Shown here: one piece after another, positions 6,676 through 27,593 of the stretch
How the letters are laid out: the number at the start of each line of letters is the position of its first letter
Numbering within the stretch: the stretch's first letter is position 1
Assembly (NCBI RefSeq): GCF_028368995.1
Contig: NZ_JAQNDL010000001.1
Coordinates: 896,001 to 960,000, forward strand
DNA from: Nannocystis bainbridge
GTDB taxonomy: Bacteria > Myxococcota_A > Polyangia > Nannocystales > Nannocystaceae
Length of the DNA: 64,000 nucleotides
Reading direction: 5' to 3'
Program-made: the position numbers and the translations under genes
The notes under the pieces: generated by a model
The model's input: only the letters and a program-made list of their open reading frames with translations
Told to the model about the DNA's origin: nothing
Databases searched by the model: none

Positions 6676-8916
6676 TCAACCGCCGAGCGCGATCGTCAGC
6701 GCGTGGCGCACCGGCGCGCCGGCGAACTGCAGCGATGTCACTGCCTCGCGGATGCAGCGGTCGAGCGGGTGCCGCTCGTCGACCGAGACGTGCTGGACCT
6801 CGAGCAGGCGCGTCGGCCCGCCGACCTCGAGCGACAGCACCAGCCGCCTCGGCGCCCCCGGACACGCGCGCAGGCGCGGCGCCAGGGCCTCGACCGCGGC
6901 CACCACCTCGGCCCGCGTCGGCCCCGGTTTCGGCGTCACGGCCGGCGACGGGGCGACCGCCGGCGGCGCGGCGCTGGTCGGCGGGTCCGGGCTCGCCGGC
7001 GGCGTCGAACCTGTCCACAAGGACATGGCGAAGAAGCCAGCCACGGCGAGCGCCGCCGCCCCGAGCCCCAGCCCCCAGCCCAGGCGGGCGCCGCCGGCTC
7101 GCCTCGCGGGTGTCCTCGAGGACATGTCCCTCCAGGCAGCCGCGGACGCGGCCACCGGTGCGGCCGCGCGCGGCCGCGAGCCCGTCGCCGCCGCCCCGGG
7201 CGCCCGCTCGCCGCGATCGCTGTGGAGGCTGCGCAGCGCGTCGCGCTCGGCGCGGAGCAGCTCGAGCAGGCCCGTCATCGAGCCGACCCGCTGCTCGGGG
7301 TCCTGGGCCAGGATGTCCTGGAAGTCCGCCGCCAGGAACGTGTCCTCGAGCTGCGGCGCGGCGACGACCACGTGCTCGCGCAGGCGCTCGGCGCCCTCGC
7401 CGGGCTCGGCCGCCAGCAGCTCGCGGATCACCGCGTTGGGCATCTGCGCCCCCGTGATCAGCATGAACAGCACCGCGCCGAGCGAGTAGACGTCGCTGCG
7501 CTCCGACTTGGCGCCGCCGGTGAACAGCTCGGGCGCGGCGAAGGCCGGGTGGCCGTACGCGCGGCCGTCGTCGCCGCGGTGGCGGGGCGTCGGCGCGTAG
7601 CGCTGGTCGGTCGCGGCGTAGAACGCGTCGAGGAAGCGGCACTCGCTGAGGTCGATGATGCGCGGCCGCGGCGGCAGGCTGCGCTCGAGCATCAGGTTGG
7701 TGAAGCTGATGTCGCCGTGGAGGATGCCGCGCGCGTGCGCGTCGTGCAGCGCCTCGGCCAGCTCGATCACCAGCTCGACCGCCGCCAACGGGTCCATCGG
7801 CCCGCGCTGGATCGTGCGCGCCAGCGGCTCGCCGTCGATCAGCTCCTCGACCAGGTACCACGAGCCGTCGTCGTTGTAGTCGCACTCGTAGATCCGCGGG
7901 AAGGCGCGATGGCTCAGCTTGTCGAGCGCCATCGCCTCGCGGCACAGATCGGCCAGCACCGGGGTGCGGGCCAGCGCGCGCGGCAAGATCTTGACCGCGA
8001 CGTCGCGCCCGAGGATGTGGTGATGCGCGCGCCAGGTCTGCCCGCACTTGCCCTGCCCGAGCAGCGTGCGCAGCTCGAGCCGGCGCGCGTACAGCCGCGG
8101 CGGCGCCGTGGCGCTGCAGCGGGTGTCGCCGGCGTCGCTGCAGCCCGGCTGTTCGAGCGGCGCCGGCGTCAGGTCCGGCGCCAGCGGCCACACCTGCGGC
8201 TCGGGCAGCAGCACCGGCTGCGTCGCCGCCAGCTTGTGCGGCCACACCTCCATGCCCGCGGCCAGCCAGGCCGCGCGCAGCTCGTCGGCGCGCAGCTGCG
8301 GGTGACCCTCGACGTCGGCCGCGAGACCGAGCACGCGGCGCAGCGGCTCGGGCACCGGCTCGGCCGGATCGTCGCGGTCCATCAGCGCCTTGAGCGTGCG
8401 CCCGAGCTGGGCCAGATCGGCGCGCGACGAGCGGGCCCCGCTCGCCTCGTCCGCATCGGTCTGCGGCGCCGTCAGCAGGCGCGCCACGCCGGCGTCGCTC
8501 CAGCGGATGTTGCGGGCCGTGACCGCCCCGTGGGCGAGCCCGTGCTCGTGCAGGCACATCAGCGCCTCGGCGATCTGCAGCCCGACCTGCCACGACGTGT
8601 CGATCGCCAGCGGCGCCTGCGTCCACCGCTGCGCCAGCGACACGCCGCCCTCGTCCTCGCGCACGAAGTACGGGTGACCGTCGCCGCCGACCCCGTGATC
8701 GACGACCGGGGCGATGTACGCGTGGCGCAGCGCCGCCAGCAGCTTGGCCTCGCGCCCGAACCGCTCGGCCGCCGCGGCCCCGAGCGCGTGCTGCAGCGAC
8801 ACCACCTGCACCCGCGTCCGCTCGCGCTCGTCGTGCGCCACGTACACGCTGCGCCCCGGCTCCTCGTCGATCCGCTCGACCAGGCGGAACCGCGGCGAAT
8901 CGGGCGCGACGGACAT
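6676..8916 (-). CDS. Membrane Ser/Thr protein kinase with tandem pseudokinase + kinase domains
   Basis: Domain 1 has RFGREAKLL but lacks VAVK and HRD. Domain 2 has GQGKCG, VAVKIL, HGDISFTN, APE and SDVYSLG. A TM helix, Pro-rich linker and small Cys-pair C-terminal domain follow. Confidence 0.85.
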   Translation of the reverse strand: MSVAPDSPRFRLVERIDEEPGRSVYVAHDERERTRVQVVSLQHALGAAAAERFGREAKLLAALRHAYIAPVVDHGVGGDGHPYFVREDEGGVSLAQRWTQAPLAIDTSWQVGLQIAEALMCLHEHGLAHGAVTARNIRWSDAGVARLLTAPQTDADEASGARSSRADLAQLGRTLKALMDRDDPAEPVPEPLRRVLGLAADVEGHPQLRADELRAAWLAAGMEVWPHKLAATQPVLLPEPQVWPLAPDLTPAPLEQPGCSDAGDTRCSATAPPRLYARRLELRTLLGQGKCGQTWRAHHHILGRDVAVKILPRALARTPVLADLCREAMALDKLSHRAFPRIYECDYNDDGSWYLVEELIDGEPLARTIQRGPMDPLAAVELVIELAEALHDAHARGILHGDISFTNLMLERSLPPRPRIIDLSECRFLDAFYAATDQRYAPTPRHRGDDGRAYGHPAFAAPELFTGGAKSERSDVYSLGAVLFMLITGAQMPNAVIRELLAAEPGEGAERLREHVVVAAPQLEDTFLAADFQDILAQDPEQRVGSMTGLLELLRAERDALRSLHSDRGERAPGAAATGSRPRAAAPVAASAAAWRDMSSRTPARRAGGARLGWGLGLGAAALAVAGFFAMSLWTGSTPPASPDPPTSAAPPAVAPSPAVTPKPGPTRAEVVAAVEALAPRLRACPGAPRRLVLSLEVGGPTRLLEVQHVSVDERHPLDRCIREAVTSLQFAGAPVRHALTIALGG

Positions 8917-9977: not shown

Positions 9978-10434
9978 AGCCGCGCCGGCGCGGCGAATGG
10001 CATGAGTCGATCCGCCGCGCCTCGTGACATTGGCGACACGACGTTGCAGATCCAAGGGACATGTCCCTTCGGACAGCATGAGCGCCCCCCGCGCGAATCG
10101 CCCCTGCGGCCGCTCGCCCGCGCGCGCCGGTGACCCCCGCGTGTCCCCAGGATCCCCCGTCGGAGCATTTCCGCGCCGCGCGAAATCATGACACGCGCGG
10201 CCGCGCACCTCTGCGCGAGATGTCGATAGCGCGGCCTGCCACGAGTCCGGCGGCGCGACCCGCCGCGCGGGCCCGACATTGACACCGCGCGGTCAATCGC
10301 CGGAGCACCGCCAAGCGGCGTCGAACACGGGTCTGCCGCGCGATGGACCGCCGACGAACTCGTGTGCGCCCTCGAAGTCACGCGCTCGTCGGCCCGCGAA
10401 CTCGCGAGGCTCGGCTACCCTGTTGTTCGCGGAG

Positions 10435-12102
10435 ATGCAGCGGCGCGCCTTCCCCAGCCTCCCGGGCATCGTCGTGCTCGGCGTCGCGGCCTGCACGGCG
10501 CCCGGCCTCGGCAACCTCACCCACGACCCGCCGGCGCAGGAGTCCGCGACGGGCGCGAGCGGCAGCGCCAGTGAGGACGGCCCGGCGACCACCAGCGAGC
10601 CCGCGCCGCCCACCGGGACCACCAGCGAGGACCCCGCGACCACCGCCGTCGGCAGCACCACCACCGAGGGCAGCAGCAGCAGCTCGAGCGGCAGCAGCAC
10701 CACCACCGAGGACGATCCGTCCGCGCCGCCCGCGATCGTCGACGGCGGTCTCGGCCCCGATCCGCTGCAGCAGCCCGGACCCGTGAGCGTCACCATCGAC
10801 ACGGCGCACGCCGACGGCGTGCGCATGCAGGTCGACGGCGGCCCGGTGATCGAGCTCGGCCCCGCCGAGGCCGACGCCTTCACCGGCGAGATCGTCGTCT
10901 ACACCGCGCTCGACAACGGCCCGCACTTCGCCACCTTCGTCGCCTGGCGTGGCGAGCTCGAGAGCGAGGCGCTCGAGCTGCCGTTCACCGTGGCCCTGCC
11001 GCCGATGGGCAGCGAGCTGTTCTGGGAGGGCGACAACGCCATCGGCCAGGGCACCGTCATCGCCCTCGCCGTCACCCCTTCGCACCACCTCATCGAGCTC
11101 GGCACTTATTATCCCCAGGGCGATGCGCGCTGCTACTTGCGCCGCCGCAGCCTCGGCGGCACCTGGGCCGACGGCGACCTGTTCGAGGTCAAGCCGGGCC
11201 TCAAGTGCAGCGCCATCGACCTCGCGGTCGACGACGACGGCGCCCTGCTCGTGCTCGTCGACAAGCTCGAGGGCGGCGAGCTGCGCTGGTGGCTCGGCAA
11301 GTACGACGCCTGGGCCGGCCAGCCCGTCAACGTCGGCGCTGGCGTCGTCGGTGACCGCGCCCGCGCCCTCGCCCGCACCGGCGACCGCGCCGCCGTGTGC
11401 GGCACCCGGCCCAAGGGCAACACCGTCACCGCCACCGCCTGGATGTTCGCCTCCGGCGGCGGGGCCGGCACGATCGTCACCTACGATTATTTGCCCCCCA
11501 CCCAGCCGCCCCTGCCCCTCGAATTCAGCGAGACCCCCAACGATTGCACGTTCCTCGACGATCGCCTGTTCATCACCGGCGAGGTCAAGGGCAAGCACGA
11601 GCAGGACAACGTCATCCGCGTGAAGCACTTCCTGCTCGAGTCCGGTTTCGCGGGCGAGGACCCGATCTGGAAGCTGGCGGCCTCGGGCTTCAGCCAGGGC
11701 GGCGGCCGCGTCATCACCACCGACGGCGACTCGCAGGTGATGACGGGCGGCTACTTCTGCGGCGATCAGTGCGACCCGCTCTCCGAGCTGCGCATGTTCG
11801 CCGGCGGCCAGCAGGTCTGGCGCCGCTCGCTGGACCCGCTGCTGCTCGACCCGCGGGCCCTCGCCTGGCACCCGGCCGGTTACGTCGTGTTCGTGGCCTC
11901 GCGCCAGCTCGAGAAAGACGTCACCTCGTTCTTCGCGCAGGCGTGGTTCCCGCTGAAGAACCAGTCGCTGTGGACCTACGAGCATCAGGACGGGCCCACG
12001 ATTCACACGCCCACCGCCCTGGCCATCGGCCCCTATGGCCAGATCTACGCCGGCGGAATCACGGCAGGCGGTTACCCCGCCGTCGCCATCATCGCCCCGT
12101 GA
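10435..12102 (+). CDS. Hypothetical lipoprotein (T/S stalk, Ig-like segment, probable beta-propeller)
   Basis: Lipobox VAAC, T/S linker, beta-rich C-terminal region, GC3-biased codons. Confidence 0.75.
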   Translation: MQRRAFPSLPGIVVLGVAACTAPGLGNLTHDPPAQESATGASGSASEDGPATTSEPAPPTGTTSEDPATTAVGSTTTEGSSSSSSGSSTTTEDDPSAPPAIVDGGLGPDPLQQPGPVSVTIDTAHADGVRMQVDGGPVIELGPAEADAFTGEIVVYTALDNGPHFATFVAWRGELESEALELPFTVALPPMGSELFWEGDNAIGQGTVIALAVTPSHHLIELGTYYPQGDARCYLRRRSLGGTWADGDLFEVKPGLKCSAIDLAVDDDGALLVLVDKLEGGELRWWLGKYDAWAGQPVNVGAGVVGDRARALARTGDRAAVCGTRPKGNTVTATAWMFASGGGAGTIVTYDYLPPTQPPLPLEFSETPNDCTFLDDRLFITGEVKGKHEQDNVIRVKHFLLESGFAGEDPIWKLAASGFSQGGGRVITTDGDSQVMTGGYFCGDQCDPLSELRMFAGGQQVWRRSLDPLLLDPRALAWHPAGYVVFVASRQLEKDVTSFFAQAWFPLKNQSLWTYEHQDGPTIHTPTALAIGPYGQIYAGGITAGGYPAVAIIAP

Positions 12103-12154: not shown

Positions 12155-13231
12155 TCACTGCGGGATGAAGGCCGAGCAGGCCTGGCTGATCCGGTCGGTC
12201 GCCACGTCGAACGCGGGCCGGTAGTCCGTCTCGTCGTTGTCGGCGATGTGCCAGTACGGGAAGTAGTATTTGACCAGATCGCACACCGTGTCCCACGGGT
12301 TGCAGTCCGGCTTTTGAATGCTGAACATCACCACCGAATCTGGGTCGCCGTGTTTGGCGCCGGTAATGGCATCGGCCCACTGCTTCGGCGTGCCCTCCGA
12401 GTCGGTGTCGGGCGTGTTCGAGATGAACGTGACCATCAGCAGCGCGTCGTCGCGGAGGAAGCCCGCGTTGCAGCCGCCGGGCTCGTTGAGCGCCGGCGAC
12501 ACCGCCGCCGTCACCGCCTCGCCGAGCTCGTCGTCGCCGCTGAGGCCGATCTGGGCCAGACACGCGAAGGTCCCCTGCAAGTCGGGCTGCTCGCGGGTGA
12601 GGTAGCGGCGCCCGCCGACGACCCCGCAGCTCTCATTGGTCGCCGCGTCGCCGGCGGGGAAGACCGTGCCGGCGCCCATCGTCGCGTCGCAGGCCGAGGC
12701 CTCGGCGACCGCGTCGCACGGATAACCCGGGTACGGGCACGCCTGGCAGGCGGCGTTGCACGCGGCGCTGCCCCACGTCTCGTCGCCGTCGACGACCATG
12801 ATGTGATAGTCGAAGTCGGCGAACTTGCTCTCGATGGTGGCGATGAAGTGCGGGAACGCGTCGATGAGCCGCGCCTGCATGTTCTCCATGTAGCCGAGGC
12901 GCGAGATCACGAACAGGAAATCGATCTTGCCGCGGCAGCCGACCGGGTGCGGATCGCCGAGGTCGGGCATCCCGAGGTCCTGCAGCGGCGTGGTCGTCGA
13001 AACCTCGCCGGTGGTGGTGCCCGTCGAGCTGTCCTCGGGGACAGGCTCTCCGGTGGTCGTCGAGGTGGTGCTCGTCGAGAGCTCCGGCACCTCGCCCGTC
13101 GACGCCGGGGCGGTCATCGCCGGCGGGACGGCGAACGACGACGCGGCCGGATCGGGGCCCTCGCAGGCCGCCGTCAGCAGCAGGCTCGCCAGGGCCAGCC
13201 GAGCGGGGCTGCGCCGGCGCTCCGCGGACAT
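12155..13231 (-). CDS. Lipoprotein with degenerate vWA-like domain
   Basis: Lipobox LTAAC; T-rich linker; GCRGKIDFLFVIS; GFLRDDALLMVTFIS. The start ATG lies inside GGACATGTCC. Confidence 0.75.
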   Translation of the reverse strand: MSAERRRSPARLALASLLLTAACEGPDPAASSFAVPPAMTAPASTGEVPELSTSTTSTTTGEPVPEDSSTGTTTGEVSTTTPLQDLGMPDLGDPHPVGCRGKIDFLFVISRLGYMENMQARLIDAFPHFIATIESKFADFDYHIMVVDGDETWGSAACNAACQACPYPGYPCDAVAEASACDATMGAGTVFPAGDAATNESCGVVGGRRYLTREQPDLQGTFACLAQIGLSGDDELGEAVTAAVSPALNEPGGCNAGFLRDDALLMVTFISNTPDTDSEGTPKQWADAITGAKHGDPDSVVMFSIQKPDCNPWDTVCDLVKYYFPYWHIADNDETDYRPAFDVATDRISQACSAFIPQ

Positions 13232-14093
13232 GTCCGCAAGGACAGCCGAAGACCCTCCCCCGTCGGCGGTGAGCGCGGCGGCGGGCAGTTCCAGTGGCAA
13301 TACGGTAGGGTTTGGGCTCTCGCTGGCCGCCGGCGCGGCCACGACTGCACTCATTCCCCGCACGTCCCCAGCTTACCCCGACCGGGCGCAACCGCGCTGC
13401 GCGGAAGCGTGAGGTTCGAGGCTGCACATCGGCGCAGGGCCGCGCCTCAACAGTCCTTCGAGACATGTCCCGAAGTCTCAATCGTGACGATGTTCTCGCC
13501 GCCGAACCGTCGCCAGCCGCCGTTCCGACGGCGAGACGACCCATTGCGGCGCCGCGGCCCCACGCCCGAGGTTCGGGCCCTGGATCCACGAATCGGCAGC
13601 GGCGATCGGATCGCCTCCGCATCAAGGATTTAATAGTGCTGCACGCGGCGGAGAAGCGCGGCGCCCCGGGATCGTGCGCCGGAGCCGAACGGCCGCGGCA
13701 CCGCCTGTCCCGAGGGCCAGGTGAGAATCGCCGGAGCGTCGACCCCCGCGCTCGCGCCACTCCGACCAACATCATTCAGGCCCTCGCTCGCCGGCCGGCG
13801 ATTCGCTCCTCTTGATCCCAAGAGGCCGCCTCTGCCGGACCGTGGCCAGCCGGACCTGCCGACTGCGCGATTTCACCCATCTTGCCGAGACCGGCGAGCT
13901 CCGCATCCCGCGCACTCCTGGCAAGGCTTCCGGGCCGACTCTGGAGCTCACCGACGCCCGGAGACGCCCCGCGGACCTTCGCTCGCCCCGATTGTCCCTC
14001 GTAGCCCCCGATCGTTGGGCTCCGGGCTTCCTCGATGGGTGGCAGGCGGATCCCTGGACGGGCCAGCCCGCGACATGATAGTTTCGCCAGGTT

Positions 14094-15152
14094 ATGAAGC
14101 TTTGCGACGCCTGTCATCGTCACGTGCGCGCGAGCGACGGCGCCTGTCCGTTCTGCGGTCGCTGCCTGCGCACCACCGCGGCCACCCGCCTCGGCGCGGT
14201 CGTCTTGCTCGGCGCGCTGGAGACGGCGTGCAGCGGTCGGCCGGTCGAGGAGACCGCCGGGGACACGACGGCGCCGACCAGCAGCAGCAGCAGCGACACC
14301 TCCAGCAGCGCGCCGACCAGCTCGTCCTCCACGACCACGACCACGACGACCGCGACCGTCACCTCGACCGGCGATCCATCGGCGACCCAGGCCAGCAGCA
14401 CCGGCGAGCTCTCGAGCACCGGCGACATCGACACCAGCGACACCGGCTGCAGCTTCTATGGCGGCTGCCCGGCCGACTTCGCCAACACGATCGAGTGCAG
14501 CACCTTCGCCCAGGACTGTCCCGAAGGCCAGAAGTGCAGCTCGAAGCAGGTCGGCGATCAGTTCTTCGACGCGACCGAGTGCGTCCCGATCGCGCGCGAC
14601 CCGGACCAGCCGGGCCAGCCGTGCACGGTCGAGGGCTCGCCCAACTCCGGCCTCGACTCGTGTGAACTCGGCAGCATGTGCTGGCACGTCGACGCCCAGA
14701 CCCTCGCGGGCACCTGCGTGAGCCAGTGCGCCGGCACGCCCGACGACCCGGCGTGCCCTGCCACCACCACCTGCGTCCGCTTCAACGAGGCGCTGCACCT
14801 GTGCCTGCCGACCTGCGACCCGCTGGCCCCCGCCTGCGCGCCGGACGAGGTGTGCGCCCCCAACTCCTTCGACGCCAACGCGCTGTTCGTGTGCGTCGCG
14901 GACAGCTCGGGCGACGGCGGCGCCGAGTTCGAGCCGTGCGAGTTCGTCAACGCCTGCGACCTCGGCCTCGCGTGCCTGGACTCCGCGCTGGCCACCGAGT
15001 GCGATCCGCTGGCCTCCGGCTGCTGCCTGACCTACTGCGACCTGAGCGCGCCGACGTGCAGCGGCGCCGGGGCCGAGTGCACGCCGTGGCACGAGGACAG
15101 CCCGGCCCCGCCCGACCTCGAGAACGTCGGCGTCTGCGCGCTGCCGACCTGA
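14094..15152 (+). CDS. Cys-rich exported protein/lipoprotein with N-terminal CxxC...CPFC leader; candidate radical-SAM substrate
   Basis: MKLCDACHRHVRASDGACPFCG, then hydrophobic LGAVVLLGALETAC, a T/S stalk, GCSFYGGC and a QDCPEGQKC Cys-rich domain. Paralogous to 26628-27593. Confidence 0.85.
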   Translation: MKLCDACHRHVRASDGACPFCGRCLRTTAATRLGAVVLLGALETACSGRPVEETAGDTTAPTSSSSSDTSSSAPTSSSSTTTTTTTATVTSTGDPSATQASSTGELSSTGDIDTSDTGCSFYGGCPADFANTIECSTFAQDCPEGQKCSSKQVGDQFFDATECVPIARDPDQPGQPCTVEGSPNSGLDSCELGSMCWHVDAQTLAGTCVSQCAGTPDDPACPATTTCVRFNEALHLCLPTCDPLAPACAPDEVCAPNSFDANALFVCVADSSGDGGAEFEPCEFVNACDLGLACLDSALATECDPLASGCCLTYCDLSAPTCSGAGAECTPWHEDSPAPPDLENVGVCALPT

Positions 15153-15157
15153 CGCTG

Positions 15158-15249
15158 CGACATGTCCCCCGGGACATGTCGACTCATTGCATGGACATGT
15201 CCTCGAGGACATGTCCTTTTGGCGCGCGAATAAACCGTCCCGAAGGACA
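15158..15249. repeat. TGTCC-N4-GGACA cluster
   Basis: Perfect copies at 15163 and 15198, near copy at 15236; lies between convergent genes. Confidence 0.85.
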
Positions 15250-15254
15250 GGCGC

Positions 15255-16574
15255 TCACGCGACCGGCACGCCGGGCCCGAACGGCATCACGTCGCGACCG
15301 ACGCGCGGGTCGTCGACCGCCACCGGCCCGCGGGCAGCGGCCTCCGGATCGGTCGCCTCCCGGACCACGCGATACAGACCGTGGTCGAACGGCAGCCCGG
15401 GGGCCGGTGCGACCGGCTCGATGCGCTCGCGCAGGCCGGCGCGGCCCAGCTCGAGCGCGCGGTGATGACAGTACGGATTGTTGCCCGGGCGGCCGAGCAG
15501 CGGCTCGCTGGTGGCCGAGCAGCCGGCCAGGCACACATCATTGTAATAGCAGTCGCGGCAGTACCCCCAAAGATCGTCCACGGTGCGCACGCGGGTGAAC
15601 TGCAGCTCGGGCGCGTCGGCCCAGATCTCCGCGAGCGGCCGCTCGCGCACGTTGCCGGCCACGTTGGCCGGGCCGCCGAGGCTGGGACAGCCCTTGATCG
15701 TGCCGTCGGCCTCGATCCCGAGCGCGTGGCGGCCGGCGATGCAGCCCTTGTAGTGCCCGCCCGCCTTCTGCCGCCCGCGCAGCTCGGCCTCGAGCGGCCC
15801 GAAATAGCCGAGGTTGTTGGCCGGGAACAGCCGCAGCCCGTGCGGCGCTGCGCGGGCGATCAGCTGCTCGATCACCGCGAAGACCTCCACCATCATGAAT
15901 GGTTGCAGCAGGATCTCCGGGTGGTCGGCCGCGTTGCCGAACGGCGCCGTGATCTGCAGCTGCCAGCCGCCGATCTTCTCGGCGATCAGCAGCTCCGCCA
16001 GCGCCGCGAGCGTCGGCAGCGTGAGGCGGTTGATCTGGGTGTTGACGGCCCGTCCGACCCCCGCCGCGCGCAGCCGGGCCAGCGCCGCGAAGGCCCGATC
16101 GAAGCTGCCGTGGACCCCGCGCAGGGCGTCATGCGCGGCCCGGGTCCCGTCGATCGACACGCTGACGCTGCGGATCCCCGCCTCTGCCAGCGCGGCCACC
16201 CGCGCCTCGGACAGGTTGAGCCCGCCGGTCGTCATCGTGCAGTCCATGCCGGCGCTGCGGATCGCCCGCGCGATCAGGATGAAGTCGTCGCGCAGATACG
16301 CCTCGCCGCCGATCAGCGTGACCTCCCCGATCCCCAGCGCGCGCAGGTCGGTGACCAGCGCCAGCGCCTCGTCGGTGGTCAGCTCGCCGTGACGCGCCGC
16401 CCCGGCCCGCGACCCACAATGGAGGCACTTCTGATCGCACTTCAGCGTCAGCTCCCACACCGCATAGCGCGGCGTGGGCACCTCCCCGGCGATTCGCGTG
16501 AGGGCGCGGCGATCGTCGGGCCGCGGCAGCGAGGCCACCACCGGCAGGCGGCGGCGATTGTCACGCAGGCTCAC
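15255..16574 (-). CDS. Radical SAM/SPASM peptide maturase, PlpX/PcpX (splicease)-like
   Basis: YAVWELTLKCDQKCLHCGSRAG; IGGE; WQLQIT..GNAADHPEILLQP; NNLGYFGP; GCIAG..GIEADGTIKGCPSL; LWGYCRDCYYNDVCLAGC; GNNPYCHHRAL. Confidence 0.9.
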   Translation of the reverse strand: MSLRDNRRRLPVVASLPRPDDRRALTRIAGEVPTPRYAVWELTLKCDQKCLHCGSRAGAARHGELTTDEALALVTDLRALGIGEVTLIGGEAYLRDDFILIARAIRSAGMDCTMTTGGLNLSEARVAALAEAGIRSVSVSIDGTRAAHDALRGVHGSFDRAFAALARLRAAGVGRAVNTQINRLTLPTLAALAELLIAEKIGGWQLQITAPFGNAADHPEILLQPFMMVEVFAVIEQLIARAAPHGLRLFPANNLGYFGPLEAELRGRQKAGGHYKGCIAGRHALGIEADGTIKGCPSLGGPANVAGNVRERPLAEIWADAPELQFTRVRTVDDLWGYCRDCYYNDVCLAGCSATSEPLLGRPGNNPYCHHRALELGRAGLRERIEPVAPAPGLPFDHGLYRVVREATDPEAAARGPVAVDDPRVGRDVMPFGPGVPVA

Positions 16575-16849
16575 GGCCTCAGGGTATCACGAGGCGGCGG
16601 CCGGCCGCCTGGATCGGGCGGACCGCCGTCGTCGACGTGCTCGGGCCGCTGCTCCTTCTTGGCGACGATCACGTGCTGGGTCGAGGGCGCCAGCATCTGC
16701 TGCAGCTCGGCCAGGGCGTTGCCGGCCCCCGTGGTCGAGGGCTTGCGGACCCGATAATAGATGTACCCGCGGCGCTCGAGCGCCAGCAGCAGGCGGTCGG
16801 CCACGAACAGCCCGACGACCACGACGACGACGGTGAGCGGCCACGACAC
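16571..16849 (-). CDS. Small membrane-anchored protein (DUF6191-like), overlapping the rSAM start
   Basis: N-terminal TM; DRLLLALERRGYIYYR; C-terminal DDGGPP. GTGA stop/start overlap at 16571-16574. Confidence 0.65.
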   Translation of the reverse strand: MSWPLTVVVVVVGLFVADRLLLALERRGYIYYRVRKPSTTGAGNALAELQQMLAPSTQHVIVAKKEQRPEHVDDGGPPDPGGRPPPRDTLRP

Positions 16850-16984: not shown

Positions 16985-17557
16985 TCACTTGCCCTGCGAG
17001 TCGGAGACGTACTTGGCGGCGACCTTGCCGAGGTTGCGCCCGGCCATCTCCATGCGCTGATGGTCGGACGGCGTGGTGAGGCTGGCGCCGACGCTCGTCT
17101 TGGTGTCGATGATGTCGGTGACGGTGCCGTCCTTCTGCCACGAGAAGCGGGCCTGGACCTTCGACGGCACGCTGTACACCGGCGTGTAGATGCCGGTCGT
17201 CACGTGCACGTAGGCGACCACCAGGTCGGGCTTGGCGTCGGCCGCCACGGGCACCGCGTTGACGCCCCGGTCGCGCATGCCCTCGAGGATCGCCGCGTCG
17301 GTCTCCTGCTTGATCTTGGCGAAGTCGGCCTTCTCCTCGTCGTTCTTGGTCGCCAGGTATTCCGCCTCGGAGCTCTTGTCGAGCACGGTGACCTGCGACC
17401 AGTCGAACCCGACCGTCATGCCCGTCATCCCCTTGAGGGCCGAGGGCGGCCCCGACTGCTGCACGACCGCGTAGGGCTTGCAGGCGGTGGCGGCGAGCGG
17501 CGCTGCGGCGAGGGCGAGCACGAAGGCGAAGCGGCGAAACAGACGGACGTGGGTCAT
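16985..17557 (-). CDS. Hypothetical lipoprotein
   Basis: Signal peptide ending ATAC; alpha/beta domain; strong codon bias. Confidence 0.75.
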   Translation of the reverse strand: MTHVRLFRRFAFVLALAAAPLAATACKPYAVVQQSGPPSALKGMTGMTVGFDWSQVTVLDKSSEAEYLATKNDEEKADFAKIKQETDAAILEGMRDRGVNAVPVAADAKPDLVVAYVHVTTGIYTPVYSVPSKVQARFSWQKDGTVTDIIDTKTSVGASLTTPSDHQRMEMAGRNLGKVAAKYVSDSQGK

Positions 17558-18012: not shown

Positions 18013-18258
18013 CCGCGGGTTCGCTCGCACCGCGAGCGAACATCGAGATCGAAGTCATCGGCGCGCGCATCGTGGGATGCGCGCGCTCGTGTTTTTCATG
18101 CGTGGGCCCGACCGGCCCTCGGCCCGCCTCCTCGGCGGGCCCCTCGTCGCGCGCCCGGGCTCGCCTCGCATTTGCGCGCATCGGCTCGCCGCGCCGCGAT
18201 CGCGCCGCGCGGAGACATGCATTGTCGCGGGCCCTGCGGCTTGGGTAGCGTGCGGGCG

Positions 18259-19857
18259 ATGCAGCCCTCGACCTTCAATTCGCCGCGCCTCCGCTTCCTC
18301 GTCGCCGGGCCGTTGTCGCCGCGACCGGGCGGGCGGCGCGGGCGGATCTTGCTGGCCGAGCTGGCCGAGCGCCTGACGCAGTCTTCGCTGGCCCTCGACG
18401 TGGACGTCGGCCCTGCGCTCGGCGCCGCCGGTGAGCTCAAGATCAAGGCCAAGTTCTCCCGCTTCCGCGACTTCTCGGTCACCGAGGTCGTGCAGCAGAG
18501 CCTCGGCGAGCTGCACCGCCTGCGCGAGCGGCTGCTCGCCCCCAGCGGTCGCCCGCGCAGCGACGAGCTGCTGGCCCAGGTCGCCCGCATCGCCGGTCGC
18601 GGCCCGCTGCACGCCGAGATCGCGGCCTGCTTCGCCCCCCCGCCCGAGAAGCCCGCCGATCCGGGCGGCGGCGACCTCGTGGACGAGCTGCTGGCCCGCG
18701 GCTCGGCCCCGCCGAAGAGCGCTGCAAGCTCGGCGATCGACGCCCTGGTCCGCGGCGGCGTCCAGAGCACCCCGGCCGGCGCGGGCGTCGAGCCGTCGCG
18801 GGCTGCCCACGCCGCGCTGTCGGCCGCGCTCGCGCGAGCGGCCACCGCCGTGCTCGCCGATCCCAAGCTGCGGGCCGCGGAGCTGCGCTGGCGGAGCTTG
18901 CGGCTGTTCTTGAGCCAGTGCCCCCGCGACCCCGAGCTCGACGTGGAGCTGCTCGACGTCGACCCCGCCGGCCTGCCTGCCGCCCTCGCCGAGCTCGCCG
19001 AGCTCGACCCGCTCGCCCGCCCCGACGCCATCTTCCTGCTCGACCCGCTCGCTAGCCTCGCCGAGGCCGCCGCGATCGCCGAGGTCGCGGCCGACCTGCA
19101 CGCGCCCGTGTGCGCCGAGCTCGACCCCGCCGCCCTCGGGCGCGCCGGCACGGCCGCGATCGCGGCCGGCGTCGCCCAGGACCTGGGCCTGGGCGACGAG
19201 TTCGAGGCGCTGCGCGACGACCCGGCCAGCCGCTGGCTCACCCTCGCGGTCAACGGCCCCGTCCTGGCCGCCGAGGCCACCCCGGCCGGCGAGCGCGTGC
19301 TCGCCGGCGGCGCCGCCCTGGCCGTCGCCGCCCTCATCGCCTCCAGCCTGCGCCTCGGCGGCACCCTGGCCCAGATCGGCCGCGACGCCGACCTGCGGGC
19401 GCCCGCGACCTGGTCCTTCCGACATGGCCAGGAGGACATCCCGATCGCCACCGCCGAGCGGTGCTCCGCCGAGGACCAGCTGGCGCTCGCGCGCCGCGGC
19501 CTGACCGCGCTCGGCGGCCCGCAGCAGAGCGACCTGCTCACCCTCGCCGCCTGCCCCGTCGTCCATCGCAGCGACGAGCCGACGAGCCTGGCCGGTCAGC
19601 TGCTCGTCGGACGCACCGTGCGCTTCGCCCTGTGGGTCCGCCATCGCATCCCCGCCGGCGCCAGCCCCGAGCAGGCCGCCGACGCCGTGACCCGCGCCGC
19701 GGCCCTGATGCTGCTGCCCGGCACCCCGCTCCGCCCGCGCTTCGGCGCCGCCCTCAACCAGGGCGAGTCGGGCCCCGAGCTCAAGATCGGCGCCTCGTTC
19801 CCGGCCGGCCTCGCCGGCCACCCGGTCGCCCTGTCGTTCGCCCTGCCGATCTCGTGA
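18259..19857 (+). CDS. Orphan fused TssB-TssC (VipA/VipB)-like T6SS sheath protein
   Basis: N-terminal RFLVAG...KFSRFRDFSVTEVVQQ..ELHRLRERL is TssB-like. VLADPKLRAAELRWRSLRLFL and LALARRGLTAL are TssC-like. Confidence 0.7.
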   Translation: MQPSTFNSPRLRFLVAGPLSPRPGGRRGRILLAELAERLTQSSLALDVDVGPALGAAGELKIKAKFSRFRDFSVTEVVQQSLGELHRLRERLLAPSGRPRSDELLAQVARIAGRGPLHAEIAACFAPPPEKPADPGGGDLVDELLARGSAPPKSAASSAIDALVRGGVQSTPAGAGVEPSRAAHAALSAALARAATAVLADPKLRAAELRWRSLRLFLSQCPRDPELDVELLDVDPAGLPAALAELAELDPLARPDAIFLLDPLASLAEAAAIAEVAADLHAPVCAELDPAALGRAGTAAIAAGVAQDLGLGDEFEALRDDPASRWLTLAVNGPVLAAEATPAGERVLAGGAALAVAALIASSLRLGGTLAQIGRDADLRAPATWSFRHGQEDIPIATAERCSAEDQLALARRGLTALGGPQQSDLLTLAACPVVHRSDEPTSLAGQLLVGRTVRFALWVRHRIPAGASPEQAADAVTRAAALMLLPGTPLRPRFGAALNQGESGPELKIGASFPAGLAGHPVALSFALPIS

Positions 19858-26627: not shown

Positions 26628-27593
26628 TCACTGCGGGATGCCGCAGACGCCGACATTCTCGAAGCCTGGAGGGGCCTGACCCATCTCGTACCACGCCAGG
26701 CACTCGGCGTTTTGGCCGGTGCACACGCCGGCCTCGGTCATGTCACAGAACGCGATGCAGCAGCCGATCGCCATCGGGTCGCACTCGGCCGCGATCTCCG
26801 GGTTGGCGCACGTGAAGCCCTTGTCGCACGCGTTGATGTACTCGCACGCGTCGAACTCCTGGCCCTCTTCGCCCGAGGCGTCGAGCACACACAGGAACGC
26901 GTCCGGGTTCTGCGGGTTGGGGATGCACAGGTTGTTGCCCGGGCAGTCCTGCAGCAGCGGATCGCACGACGGCAGGCACAGCGTCAGCACGCCGTCGTTG
27001 GAGATCAGGCACGAGGTCATCGGCTGGGCGCAGTCGGGCGCGTCGGGCGAGCCGACGCAGAGGGCCACGCACGTCCCGACGCCTTCGGTGACGTCCCAGC
27101 ACATGTTGCCCTTGTCGCAGTTGTCGATGCCGCTGACGCCGCTGCCCTCGACGGTGCACGGGTCGCCGACCTGGCCGGCGTTCTCCATCACCGGCGTGCA
27201 CTTGAGCGACTCCCACGCGTTGTCGCCGTCACCCGAGTACGGCATGCACTTCTGTCCTTCGGGACAGTCCTGCGTCCACTGATCGCACTCCTTGGCCCCG
27301 CCGCCGCCGTCGGGCGGGGTGATGAACGAGCCGTCGGTGGTGCTCTCGCCTTCGGTGGTCTCGGTCGGATCGCCCGGCGTCGTCGTCGAAGTCGGGTTCG
27401 TCGTGGTCCCGCCGGGCCCGCCCGTCGAGGTGTTGCCCTCGGACCCGCCCGAGCTCGTCTCGTCGTCGGTGGTGTTGTTGTTGTTGGTGGTCGGGGTGTT
27501 CGTCGCGTTGCCCTTGCCGCCGTCGTCGCCGCACGCCGACAGGAGCACACTCACGAGCGCACACGGTATCCATCGCATCGTCATCACTGGCAT
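26628..27593 (-). CDS. Cys-rich lipoprotein (paralog of 14094-15152)
   Basis: GGAG-rich RBS; lipobox LLSAC-GDD; T/N stalk; QDCPEGQKC...LCLPSCDPL...ACEYINAC...ENVGVC. Confidence 0.85.
   Translation of the reverse strand: MPVMTMRWIPCALVSVLLSACGDDGGKGNATNTPTTNNNNTTDDETSSGGSEGNTSTGGPGGTTTNPTSTTTPGDPTETTEGESTTDGSFITPPDGGGGAKECDQWTQDCPEGQKCMPYSGDGDNAWESLKCTPVMENAGQVGDPCTVEGSGVSGIDNCDKGNMCWDVTEGVGTCVALCVGSPDAPDCAQPMTSCLISNDGVLTLCLPSCDPLLQDCPGNNLCIPNPQNPDAFLCVLDASGEEGQEFDACEYINACDKGFTCANPEIAAECDPMAIGCCIAFCDMTEAGVCTGQNAECLAWYEMGQAPPGFENVGVCGIPQ

Follow-up and report, generated by a model that had tools for sequence, protein, structure and literature searches.

Spliceases are tyramine-cutting enzymes, and both spliceases and spliceotides are established. 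According to two reviews, Scott et al. (2022) searched next to radical SAM/SPASM genes for YG-rich open reading frames (ORFs), which gave 939 predicted systems in 189 genera, and tested 27 enzyme-substrate pairs (PMC10849128, PMC10533398). The splice tags of PlpA read ...R-P-[L/G]-Y-G-L-P-I (PMC10533398). Known spliceotides act as inhibitors of serine and cysteine proteases, and a disulfide appears to be present in two of them (PMC11626197). In known spliceases a leader helix, a separate Y protein or an engineered enzyme fusion serves as the activator at one site (PMC11414181). Here we describe a locus in a 64,000-nucleotide stretch of Nannocystis bainbridge DNA (contig NZ_JAQNDL010000001.1, positions 896,001 to 960,000 of the forward strand; hereafter the window), which lies within an 11.05-Mb Nannocystis-type genome with a GC content of about 71%. 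In this locus a splicease-like radical SAM/SPASM enzyme faces the gene of a Cys-rich protein with a Zn-ribbon-like leader. The two convergent genes probably form a splicease-type enzyme-substrate pair, and the Cys-rich protein is very probably the substrate of the neighbouring enzyme. The pair consists of the following parts:

14094-15152 (+): candidate substrate gene, 352 amino acids (aa), with leader, signal-like segment, Ser/Thr linker, single Tyr site and Cys-rich domain (ORF, profile match)
14094-14159 (+): Zn-ribbon-like leader, residues 1-22, with C4, C7, R9-H10 and C18-P-F-C21-G
14160-14231 (+): residues 23-46, basic stretch, hydrophobic segment and lipobox-like L-E-T-A-C46 (sequence reading)
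14232-14447 (+): residues 47-118, disordered Ser/Thr-rich linker, variable among orthologs
14448-14468 (+): residues 119-125, C-S-F-Y-G-G-C, predicted modification site, with FYG at 14454-14462
14469-15152 (+): residues 126-352, Cys-rich domain of a Myxococcota-specific family
15255-16574 (-): radical SAM/SPASM enzyme, 439 aa, splicease-like (TIGR04103, TIGR03913, Pfam)
16416-16439 (-): radical SAM cluster CxxxCxxC, C46-x3-C50-x2-C53, the sole such cluster in the enzyme
15753-15803 (-): modelled leader-docking site, enzyme residues 258-274, beside G256-Y257-F-G-P-x-E

Like the type I systems PlpA/PlpX/PlpY and PcpAXY of Pleurocapsa and the binary type II systems RhaXA, RasXA and RcsXA of Rheinheimera, the locus has a radical SAM/SPASM enzyme with TIGR04103 as its top model, and as in spliceotide systems a candidate substrate with X-Tyr-Gly is encoded beside the enzyme. 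It resembles the type II spliceases beyond cyanobacteria in being binary, with no Y protein (PMC11414181). For RcsA and RasA a disulfide near the site was inferred (PMC11626197), and here the site lies between two Cys. The leader is different, as a Zn ribbon plus a lipoprotein-type signal is found here instead of a Nif11/NHLP or helical leader.

The 439-aa ORF contains every enzyme motif that had been quoted in an initial annotation of this DNA: YAVWELTLKC at residue 37, CGSRAG at 53, GNAAD at 213, ILLQP at 221, GIEADG at 286, IKGCPSL at 293 and GNNPYCHHRAL at 364. The cluster residues C46, C50 and C53 are invariant in 68 sequences, and the enzyme has seven more Cys beyond them. The Pfam domains Radical_SAM (74.8 bits) and SPASM (34.1 bits) both score over threshold. 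Among the 65 NCBIfam models that match the enzyme, TIGR04103 (PlpX-type splicease, IPR026482) has the top score with 441.6 bits (E-value 2e-132), followed by TIGR03913 with 419.8 bits (E-value 1e-125, covering profile positions 18-392 of 477) and, as third best, AhbD with 150 bits. The two hidden Markov models against which the initial annotation had wanted the enzyme scored are therefore indeed the top two curated families, but both curated cut-offs are missed (725 bits for TIGR04103, 591.75 bits for TIGR03913), and in the former respect the enzyme differs from the spliceotide systems. The five enzyme paralogs of the genome score 388.6-441.4 bits on TIGR04103. Likeness to spliceases refers here to profile scores, the tree of this study having been built from sequences other than the proven spliceases PlpX, PcpX and RhaX. 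Judged by these scores, the enzyme appears to share a superfamily branch with the spliceases and TIGR03913 but is a member of neither equivalog.

Relatives were collected from a library of 1.84 billion 50%-identity representatives, of which 517 match the enzyme at an E-value of at most 1e-30. Among the best 150 of these representatives 59 full-length proteins were classified, and three of the 59 pass TIGR03913, namely P0124 with 771 bits and two more (best E-value of these two 3.9e-194). P0124 is 48% identical to the query enzyme, so that in terms of identity the nearest curated family is TIGR03913 (GDL motif peptide-associated maturase). The 120 top-ranking of 5,593 homologs are all close relatives from the Myxococcota and bear generic names; the close homologs are called 'radical SAM/SPASM domain-containing protein' at NCBI and are assigned to Nannocystis pusilla or Nannocystaceae. 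No splicease structure was found in the PDB, the best match to the enzyme there being SkfB (E-value 2.7e-14).

The five enzyme paralogs of this genome share 48-60% identity, and all five have a leader-type gene within 300 nt of their 3' end, four convergent and one co-directional. The pair is thus not a lone one but one of five in the genome and part of a large family, and the initial annotation's view of the convergent Cys-rich protein as the partner of the enzyme is borne out by all five paralogs and by related loci elsewhere. The five partners have a common build, with a Zn-ribbon-like N-terminus, a hydrophobic segment bearing a lipobox-like Cys, a stretch rich in Ser/Thr/Asp/Gly and at least one Tyr followed by Gly or Ala. 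The sites themselves vary: S-F-Y-G-G-C-P is found in the partner at this locus, T-Y-A-G-P-D-E in three copies in another, F-I-Y-A-A-P-D in a third, shorter one that has the Cys-rich domain too, L-P-Y-G-A-P-P at the C-terminal end of a fourth and P-[E/D]-Y-G-V-P in four copies in the remaining one. The partner of paralog 3 at locus L003 (G000:C1:1324985-1325686(-), 233 aa) ends about halfway through the Cys-rich domain, perhaps because of a truncation or as a naturally shorter form.

A profile built from six leaders was run on all 89,837 stop-to-stop ORFs of the genome. Seven ORFs matched at an E-value below 1e-7 (the six input sequences and one more), the next best reaching 0.015, and X-Tyr-[Gly/Ala] is present in all seven. 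Three more radical SAM loci in this genome (L006-L008) are without a leader gene, and no other small conserved ORF is common to the five paralogous loci. The association of the enzyme with a leader gene is far beyond chance. Two of the leader-type proteins are encoded away from radical SAM genes (G000:C4:322178-322627(+) and G000:C1:2357725-2358192(-)). Their Tyr-Gly sites directly follow the lipobox Cys, and one of the five enzymes may act on them in trans.

The pairing extends to other genomes. The enzyme is present in 32 of 41 related genomes, in 1-7 copies each, and 29 loci were examined with 1.5-kb flanks, taking one best match per genome. A Zn-ribbon leader gene lies beside the enzyme at 22 of them; these comprise 18 profile matches, two variant ribbons missed by the profile (L029, L031) and two orthologous loci whose leaders lie just outside the flanks, where their presence was confirmed. 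Two loci (L034, L035) have a Tyr-motif lipoprotein without ribbon, and five have no such neighbour, one of these being at a contig end. At L034 and L035 the enzymes are more distant (38-40% identity) and their neighbours have a lipoprotein-type signal; one neighbour has the C-terminal end P-Y-G-A-P-D-Y-G-A-P-V-Y-G-F, and in the other Cys-rich D-N-D-G-D-G repeats alternate with L-Y-G-P-P-P sites. At the family level the enzyme occurs in 23 and the leader in 22 of 25 genomes, a pattern that is descriptive only, as the genomes are kin; the two enzyme-less genomes (93 and 90% complete) are also without the leader.

A scan of 185,579 species genomes yielded more than 590 enzyme relatives, and the best 80 were examined. 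They come from Nannocystis, Enhygromyxa, Polyangia, Myxococcaceae, Labilithrix, Sandaracinaceae, Acidobacteriota and a Planctomycetia bin. A separate leader ORF was found within 2.5 kb of the enzyme in 62 of these 80 loci: downstream on the same strand in 31, upstream on the same strand in 16, downstream and convergent in 11 and upstream and divergent in 4. In 12 of the 80 no leader ORF was present within 2.5 kb. Six leader-profile matches in Acidobacteriota loci were rejected as false, as they sit on the enzyme's own Cys cluster.

The convergent gene at 14094-15152(+) is a genuine coding frame with a codon-position-3 GC of 0.95. Coordinates and build of the 352-aa protein agree with the earlier description, in which a CxxC...CPFCG start and a Cys-flanked F121-Y122-G123 had been pointed out. 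The leader matches the profile with an E-value of 1.8e-17. Y122-G123 is the sole Tyr-Gly in the protein, which has two Tyr in total and no Tyr-Ala, and the site is placed between C119 and C125. This build is retained in the orthologs of six Nannocystis loci, publicly named 'hypothetical protein', and no ortholog has lost the site motif, which reads SFYGGC or, in more distant ones, SFYAGC. The lipobox of this protein, L-E-T-A-C46, has a Glu at -3, and the paralogous substrates have the canonical LTAC and LSGC. Across related leaders, a lipobox-like Cys follows the ribbon within 75 residues in 82 of 105 when a loose pattern is applied. Curated families (NCBIfam and Pfam, E-value up to 5) gave sub-threshold zinc-finger matches only for the substrates: Zn_ribbon_3 reaches 23.7 bits on a paralog's leader, against a cut-off of 27, and the leader at this locus is without Pfam match.

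The Cys-rich domain occurs in 35 ORFs of the genome (phmmer, E-value up to 1e-5), and its Atlas clusters are unnamed and Myxococcota-only. A Foldseek search against the PDB returned nothing at an E-value of 0.001 or better, with weak follistatin/EGF rows at TM 0.13-0.15. VIA reached a Z of 3.3 at best, with sub-modules resembling knottins and no convincing solved relative. One copy within the window serves as a natural control:

26628-27593 (-): leaderless Cys-rich paralog with a plain lipoprotein signal

This copy has the junction S-F-I-T-P-P-D and no Tyr. It had been reported to have neither a CxxC leader nor a YG, which agrees with our reading, and YA is absent as well. Of the 35 paralogs 30 could be anchored at the first conserved Cys motif. 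Tyr-Gly/Ala lies within 30 residues before the Cys-rich domain in both leader-bearing copies and is absent from this position in 27 of the 28 leaderless ones, the exception being a mis-anchored internal site. Many leaderless copies, including 26628-27593, have S-F-I-x-P-P-D-G-G-G, the same junction minus the Tyr. The two leader-bearing copies are also the only Cys-rich paralogs that lie beside an enzyme.

Site and leader statistics were obtained from 105 unique leader proteins. At least one Tyr-Gly/Ala is present in 94 of them, and 5 of the 11 exceptions run off the end of the DNA. Gly or Ala follows 216 of 260 tyrosines, against a Gly+Ala background of 30%. The consensus of 210 sites is [A/G]-P-L-Y-G-[G/A]-P-P, with Pro at +3 in 154, and this Pro-rich X-Tyr-Gly context is similar to that of the PlpA tags. 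The leader signature, derived from 103 sequences, is P-C-x-x-C-x-R-H-[V/I/L]-x6-C-P-F-C, where R occurs 84, H 85, V/I/L 99, P 96 and F 92 times; it agrees with the signature put forward in the initial annotation. The leader residues C4, C7, C18 and C21 are invariant. The co-variation of the CxxC-RH-x-CPFC leader with the Tyr motif, which had been put forward as a test, is evident in the seven-ORF set, in the 105 proteins and in the paralog comparison. The claim of an XYG site needs to be widened: Tyr-Gly is present at this locus, but the motif of the family is X-Tyr-[Gly/Ala]-x-Pro and not strictly XYG.

In a tree of 65 enzymes (FastTree, local support values only) the site classes SFYGGC, SFYAGC, FIY[GA]APD, [ST]TY[AG]GPD, P[ED]YGVP, LPY[GA] and xYGxPP correspond to separate enzyme clades. 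The clade of the enzyme studied here comprises 8 rows with 100% support, and all members with a visible partner have S-F-Y-G-G-C. As each site class has its own enzyme clade, enzyme and substrate diversified together.

Structure prediction gave the pre-protein a mean predicted local distance difference test score (pLDDT) of 68, with about 70 for the ribbon and about 80-90 for the Cys-rich domain; residues 28-132, including the FYG site, are below 50 and predicted to be disordered. When overlaid on NZF/RanBP2 zinc fingers, model residues 1-27 fit to 0.7-0.8 Å across 26-27 residues, though Z is low (2.1-2.6). A complex of the enzyme with substrate residues 1-150 was modelled with a median score of 0.78 (runs 0.73, 0.78 and 0.80), compared with 0.00 for the best of three controls. 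The mark of 0.78 is reached by 58 of 80 solved complexes and by 2 of 110 mismatched pairs, a calibration that is only rough because the complex was modelled with its own alignments. Contact agreement in the runs was at least 23% and partner pLDDT at least 44. The confident contacts involve leader residues 1, 3, 7-10 and 19, including the conserved C-H-R-H and Pro19, and enzyme residues 258-264, 272-274, 343-344 and 347. The modelled docking site adjoins a conserved stretch, in which G256 and Y257 show no variation and conservation is 90% or more at F258, G259, P260 and E262. The model supports binding of the enzyme through the leader and, by placing conserved leader residues on the enzyme, is in line with the earlier proposal of the Cys leader as recognition element.

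If the pair works as a splicease and its substrate, the enzyme would bind the N-terminal Zn ribbon of the 352-aa pre-protein in the cytoplasm, the contact probably being made through the conserved C-x-R-H-[VIL] and C-P-F-C, as conservation and the model suggest. It would then act on the single Tyr122 in the disordered stretch ahead of the Cys-rich domain, presumably before export, and tyramine would be excised. The modified chain would be exported by its own signal segment, and, if Cys46 is used, signal peptidase II would remove the ribbon together with the hydrophobic segment. The predicted product is a lipid-anchored, surface-exposed Cys-rich protein with a ketoamide in the small C119-C125 loop, which, speculatively, might act as a protease-directed warhead. 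The absence of a leader peptidase and an exporter from the locus could be explained in this way, because the lipoprotein pathway would do both jobs. No Nif11, PqqD/RRE, peptidase or exporter family was found by Pfam in the 13 neighbouring ORFs (about 8 kb), as the initial annotation had claimed for the surroundings, and this search gave no PqqD-like Y protein of the type I spliceases either.

One further small gene adjoins the enzyme:

16571-16849 (-): 92-aa ORF with an N-terminal hydrophobic helix, accessory, overlapping the enzyme start codon by 4 nt

Six orthologous Nannocystis loci (L009-L013, L038) are the only ones with this ORF upstream of the enzyme; the genome holds no second copy, and the other four enzyme paralogs lack such a neighbour. 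The ORF contains no Tyr-Gly/Ala, has no match to a Y protein, and its sole family match is a weak one to DUF4936 (18.7 bits, cut-off 28.8). As a substrate or Y protein forming a core part of the system it was rejected, being confined to the six orthologous loci and devoid of Tyr-Gly/Ala; it is a genus-level accessory outside the core system.

Several observations weigh against a splicease-type pair at this locus. The genes are convergent, so that the enzyme and the Cys-rich gene are not co-transcribed here. The enzyme remains under both curated cut-offs, none of the 59 classified relatives passes TIGR04103 (the best, P0136, has 550.6 bits), and for TIGR03913, the closest curated family, no tested function was found in literature searches. 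Ala instead of Gly follows the Tyr at 28 of 210 sites (about 13%), and no report of splicing at Tyr-Ala sites was found in the literature consulted. In the protein at this locus the Pro is at +4 and not at +3, the lipobox is atypical, and the FYG site lies outside the confident contacts of the complex model, with a partner pLDDT of about 45. Its position between two Cys would also permit a Cys- or Tyr-based cross-link in this copy. The same pair might accordingly be credited with another radical chemistry at the conserved Tyr, without tyramine excision: a Tyr cross-link, a hydroxylation- or epimerisation-like modification or, here, a thioether to C119 or C125. We consider this rather unlikely, even though the missed TIGR04103 cut-off, the want of tested chemistry for the TIGR03913 relatives in the literature searched, the Tyr-Ala motifs and the two flanking Cys all speak for it. 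In most substrates Cys is missing from the vicinity of the site (TYAGPDE, P[ED]YGVP, PLYGAPP), and therefore a Cys-based link is not the shared reaction; Gly at +2 in 70 of 210 sites likewise rules out a three-residue cyclophane to the +2 beta-carbon as the shared reaction. Moreover, the P-L-Y-G-x-P context resembles the proven PlpA splice tags, and TIGR04103 is the top-scoring model.

The Zn-ribbon proteins could instead be accessory or regulatory partners, such as membrane tethers or activators, with the substrate encoded elsewhere, perhaps by the 92-aa ORF that overlaps the enzyme start codon. Sister enzymes carry the same ribbon within the enzyme itself, and known spliceases use a separate small Y protein as activator (PMC11414181), both of which would fit such a role. 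Yet Tyr-Gly/Ala-x-Pro is the sole feature common to the very different mature parts of these proteins, the motif class tracks the enzyme clade, and neither the 92-aa ORF, with its narrow distribution and lack of the motif, nor any other small conserved ORF across the five paralogous loci offers itself as substrate, which makes a purely accessory role quite improbable. It is more improbable still that the adjacency is a coincidence in a genome rich in Cys-rich lipoproteins and that the enzyme has an unrelated role, for example in cofactor maturation. The convergent genes, which do not form one transcript, and the approximately 35 Cys-rich-domain paralogs would agree with such a coincidence, but it is already contradicted by the pairing counts (all five paralogs and 62 of the best 80 distant loci); in addition, only the two leader-bearing Cys-rich paralogs adjoin an enzyme, and cofactor-maturase families score at most 150 bits. 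A splicease-type enzyme-substrate pair thus remains the reading we favour.

The ribbon is also found on related enzymes. The leader profile matches a C-terminal Zn ribbon in 14 of the best 150 enzyme relatives; among these 14 are TIGR03913 members and near-members, in which a helical tail of some 40 residues, and no membrane segment, comes after the ribbon. TIGR03913-type enzymes with such an end include P0124, P0126, P0128, P0131, P0132, P0138, P0146 and P0148. One of the 150 relatives, P0125, has an N-terminal ribbon. In P0187 part of an enzyme precedes a ribbon, a membrane segment and P-V-Y-G-A-P sites, and this sequence may be a true fusion or a chimera. Conversely, three substrate leaders weakly match TIGR03913 profile positions 410-465 (E-value 0.007-0.18). 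The C-terminal Zn ribbon of TIGR03913 therefore resembles the substrate leaders described here, whereas the match of the query enzyme ends at profile position 392 of 477, the C-terminal ribbon-plus-helix extension being absent, and the ribbon is on the substrate. From these matches the Zn ribbon appears to be a module that is placed either on the substrate or on the enzyme and, by analogy, would parallel the activator modules of spliceases.

Taken together, these observations allow a broader, tentative reading, which we regard as possible rather than probable: an extended lipoprotein signal peptide would serve as a leader in the style of RiPPs (peptides made by the ribosome and modified after translation) in a widespread, unannotated class of exported proteins, with the ribbon as a movable activator. 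A cytoplasmic Zn ribbon ahead of the signal would recruit, and perhaps activate, a radical SAM splicease before export, and signal peptidase II and the lipoprotein pathway would act as leader peptidase and exporter. In Nannocystis the outcome would be a folded, membrane-anchored Cys-rich protein whose backbone bears a single ketoamide within a loop closed by a disulfide. The activator module would be carried by the substrate here and by the enzyme C-terminus in TIGR03913, an arrangement that would mirror in nature the engineered leader/Y-protein fusions.

Two further described contexts were compared. In one Chromobacterium paper TIGR03913 is annotated beside DUF1842/DUF1843 genes (PMC12114271), in contrast to this locus, where no DUF1842/DUF1843 genes were seen. 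The 'radical SAM with lipoprotein' families TIGR04133/TIGR04134 likewise combine a radical SAM/SPASM enzyme with an exported lipoprotein; however, the enzyme scores 144.3 bits on TIGR04133 and does not reach the cut-off of 425, and the substrates have no NCBIfam match beyond weak zinc fingers. In the literature on tyramine, radical SAM enzymes and myxobacteria, judged by titles and the openings of abstracts, no work on this system was found. The literature searched contained no description of a Zn-ribbon-plus-lipoprotein-signal leader, a precursor type that Scott et al. (2022) may cover, nor of a single-site folded Cys-rich substrate with a ribbon leader, of five to seven co-evolved pairs per Nannocystis genome or of the alternative placement of the ribbon on TIGR03913-type enzymes.

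If the chemistry is as proposed, tyramine splicing would take place naturally on a full-size, folded and exported protein as opposed to a short peptide, and it would become clear how binary splicease loci manage with neither peptidase nor exporter. The five to seven co-evolved Nannocystis pairs with their differing site contexts would provide a panel for site and leader rules, and the Zn-ribbon leader of about 22 residues, with its clear signature, might be useful as a compact recognition tag in protein engineering.

The surrounding region is crowded with predicted lipoproteins with Ser/Thr-rich linkers, at 10279-12102(+), 12155-13363(-), 16985-17557(-) and 26628-27593(-), and for none of these four was a Pfam or NCBIfam family matched. 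The 561-aa ORF at 18172-19857(+) has a weak match to the VipB N-terminal domain (type VI secretion sheath; 21.8 bits, cut-off 27). The space between the two convergent genes contains the following features:

15153-15254 (no strand): intergenic spacer, 102 nt, separating the two convergent stop codons, with copies of the palindrome GGACATGTCC and a terminator-like hairpin
15193-15202 and 15207-15216: spacer copies of GGACATGTCC

A promoter/terminator scan returned no promoter-like site at the locus and a terminator-like site at 15250-15235(-) in the spacer, the scan total of 1 comparing with 1.1 expected by chance. In the spacer, hairpins are formed by the two GGACATGTCC copies and two near-copies. 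The 10-base palindrome occurs ten times in the window, against 0.06 expected, with the further copies at window positions 7120, 10057, 13226, 36046, 49195, 49255, 49304 and 58315, and resembles an intergenic palindromic repeat of genome-wide spread or a terminator element that works in both directions.

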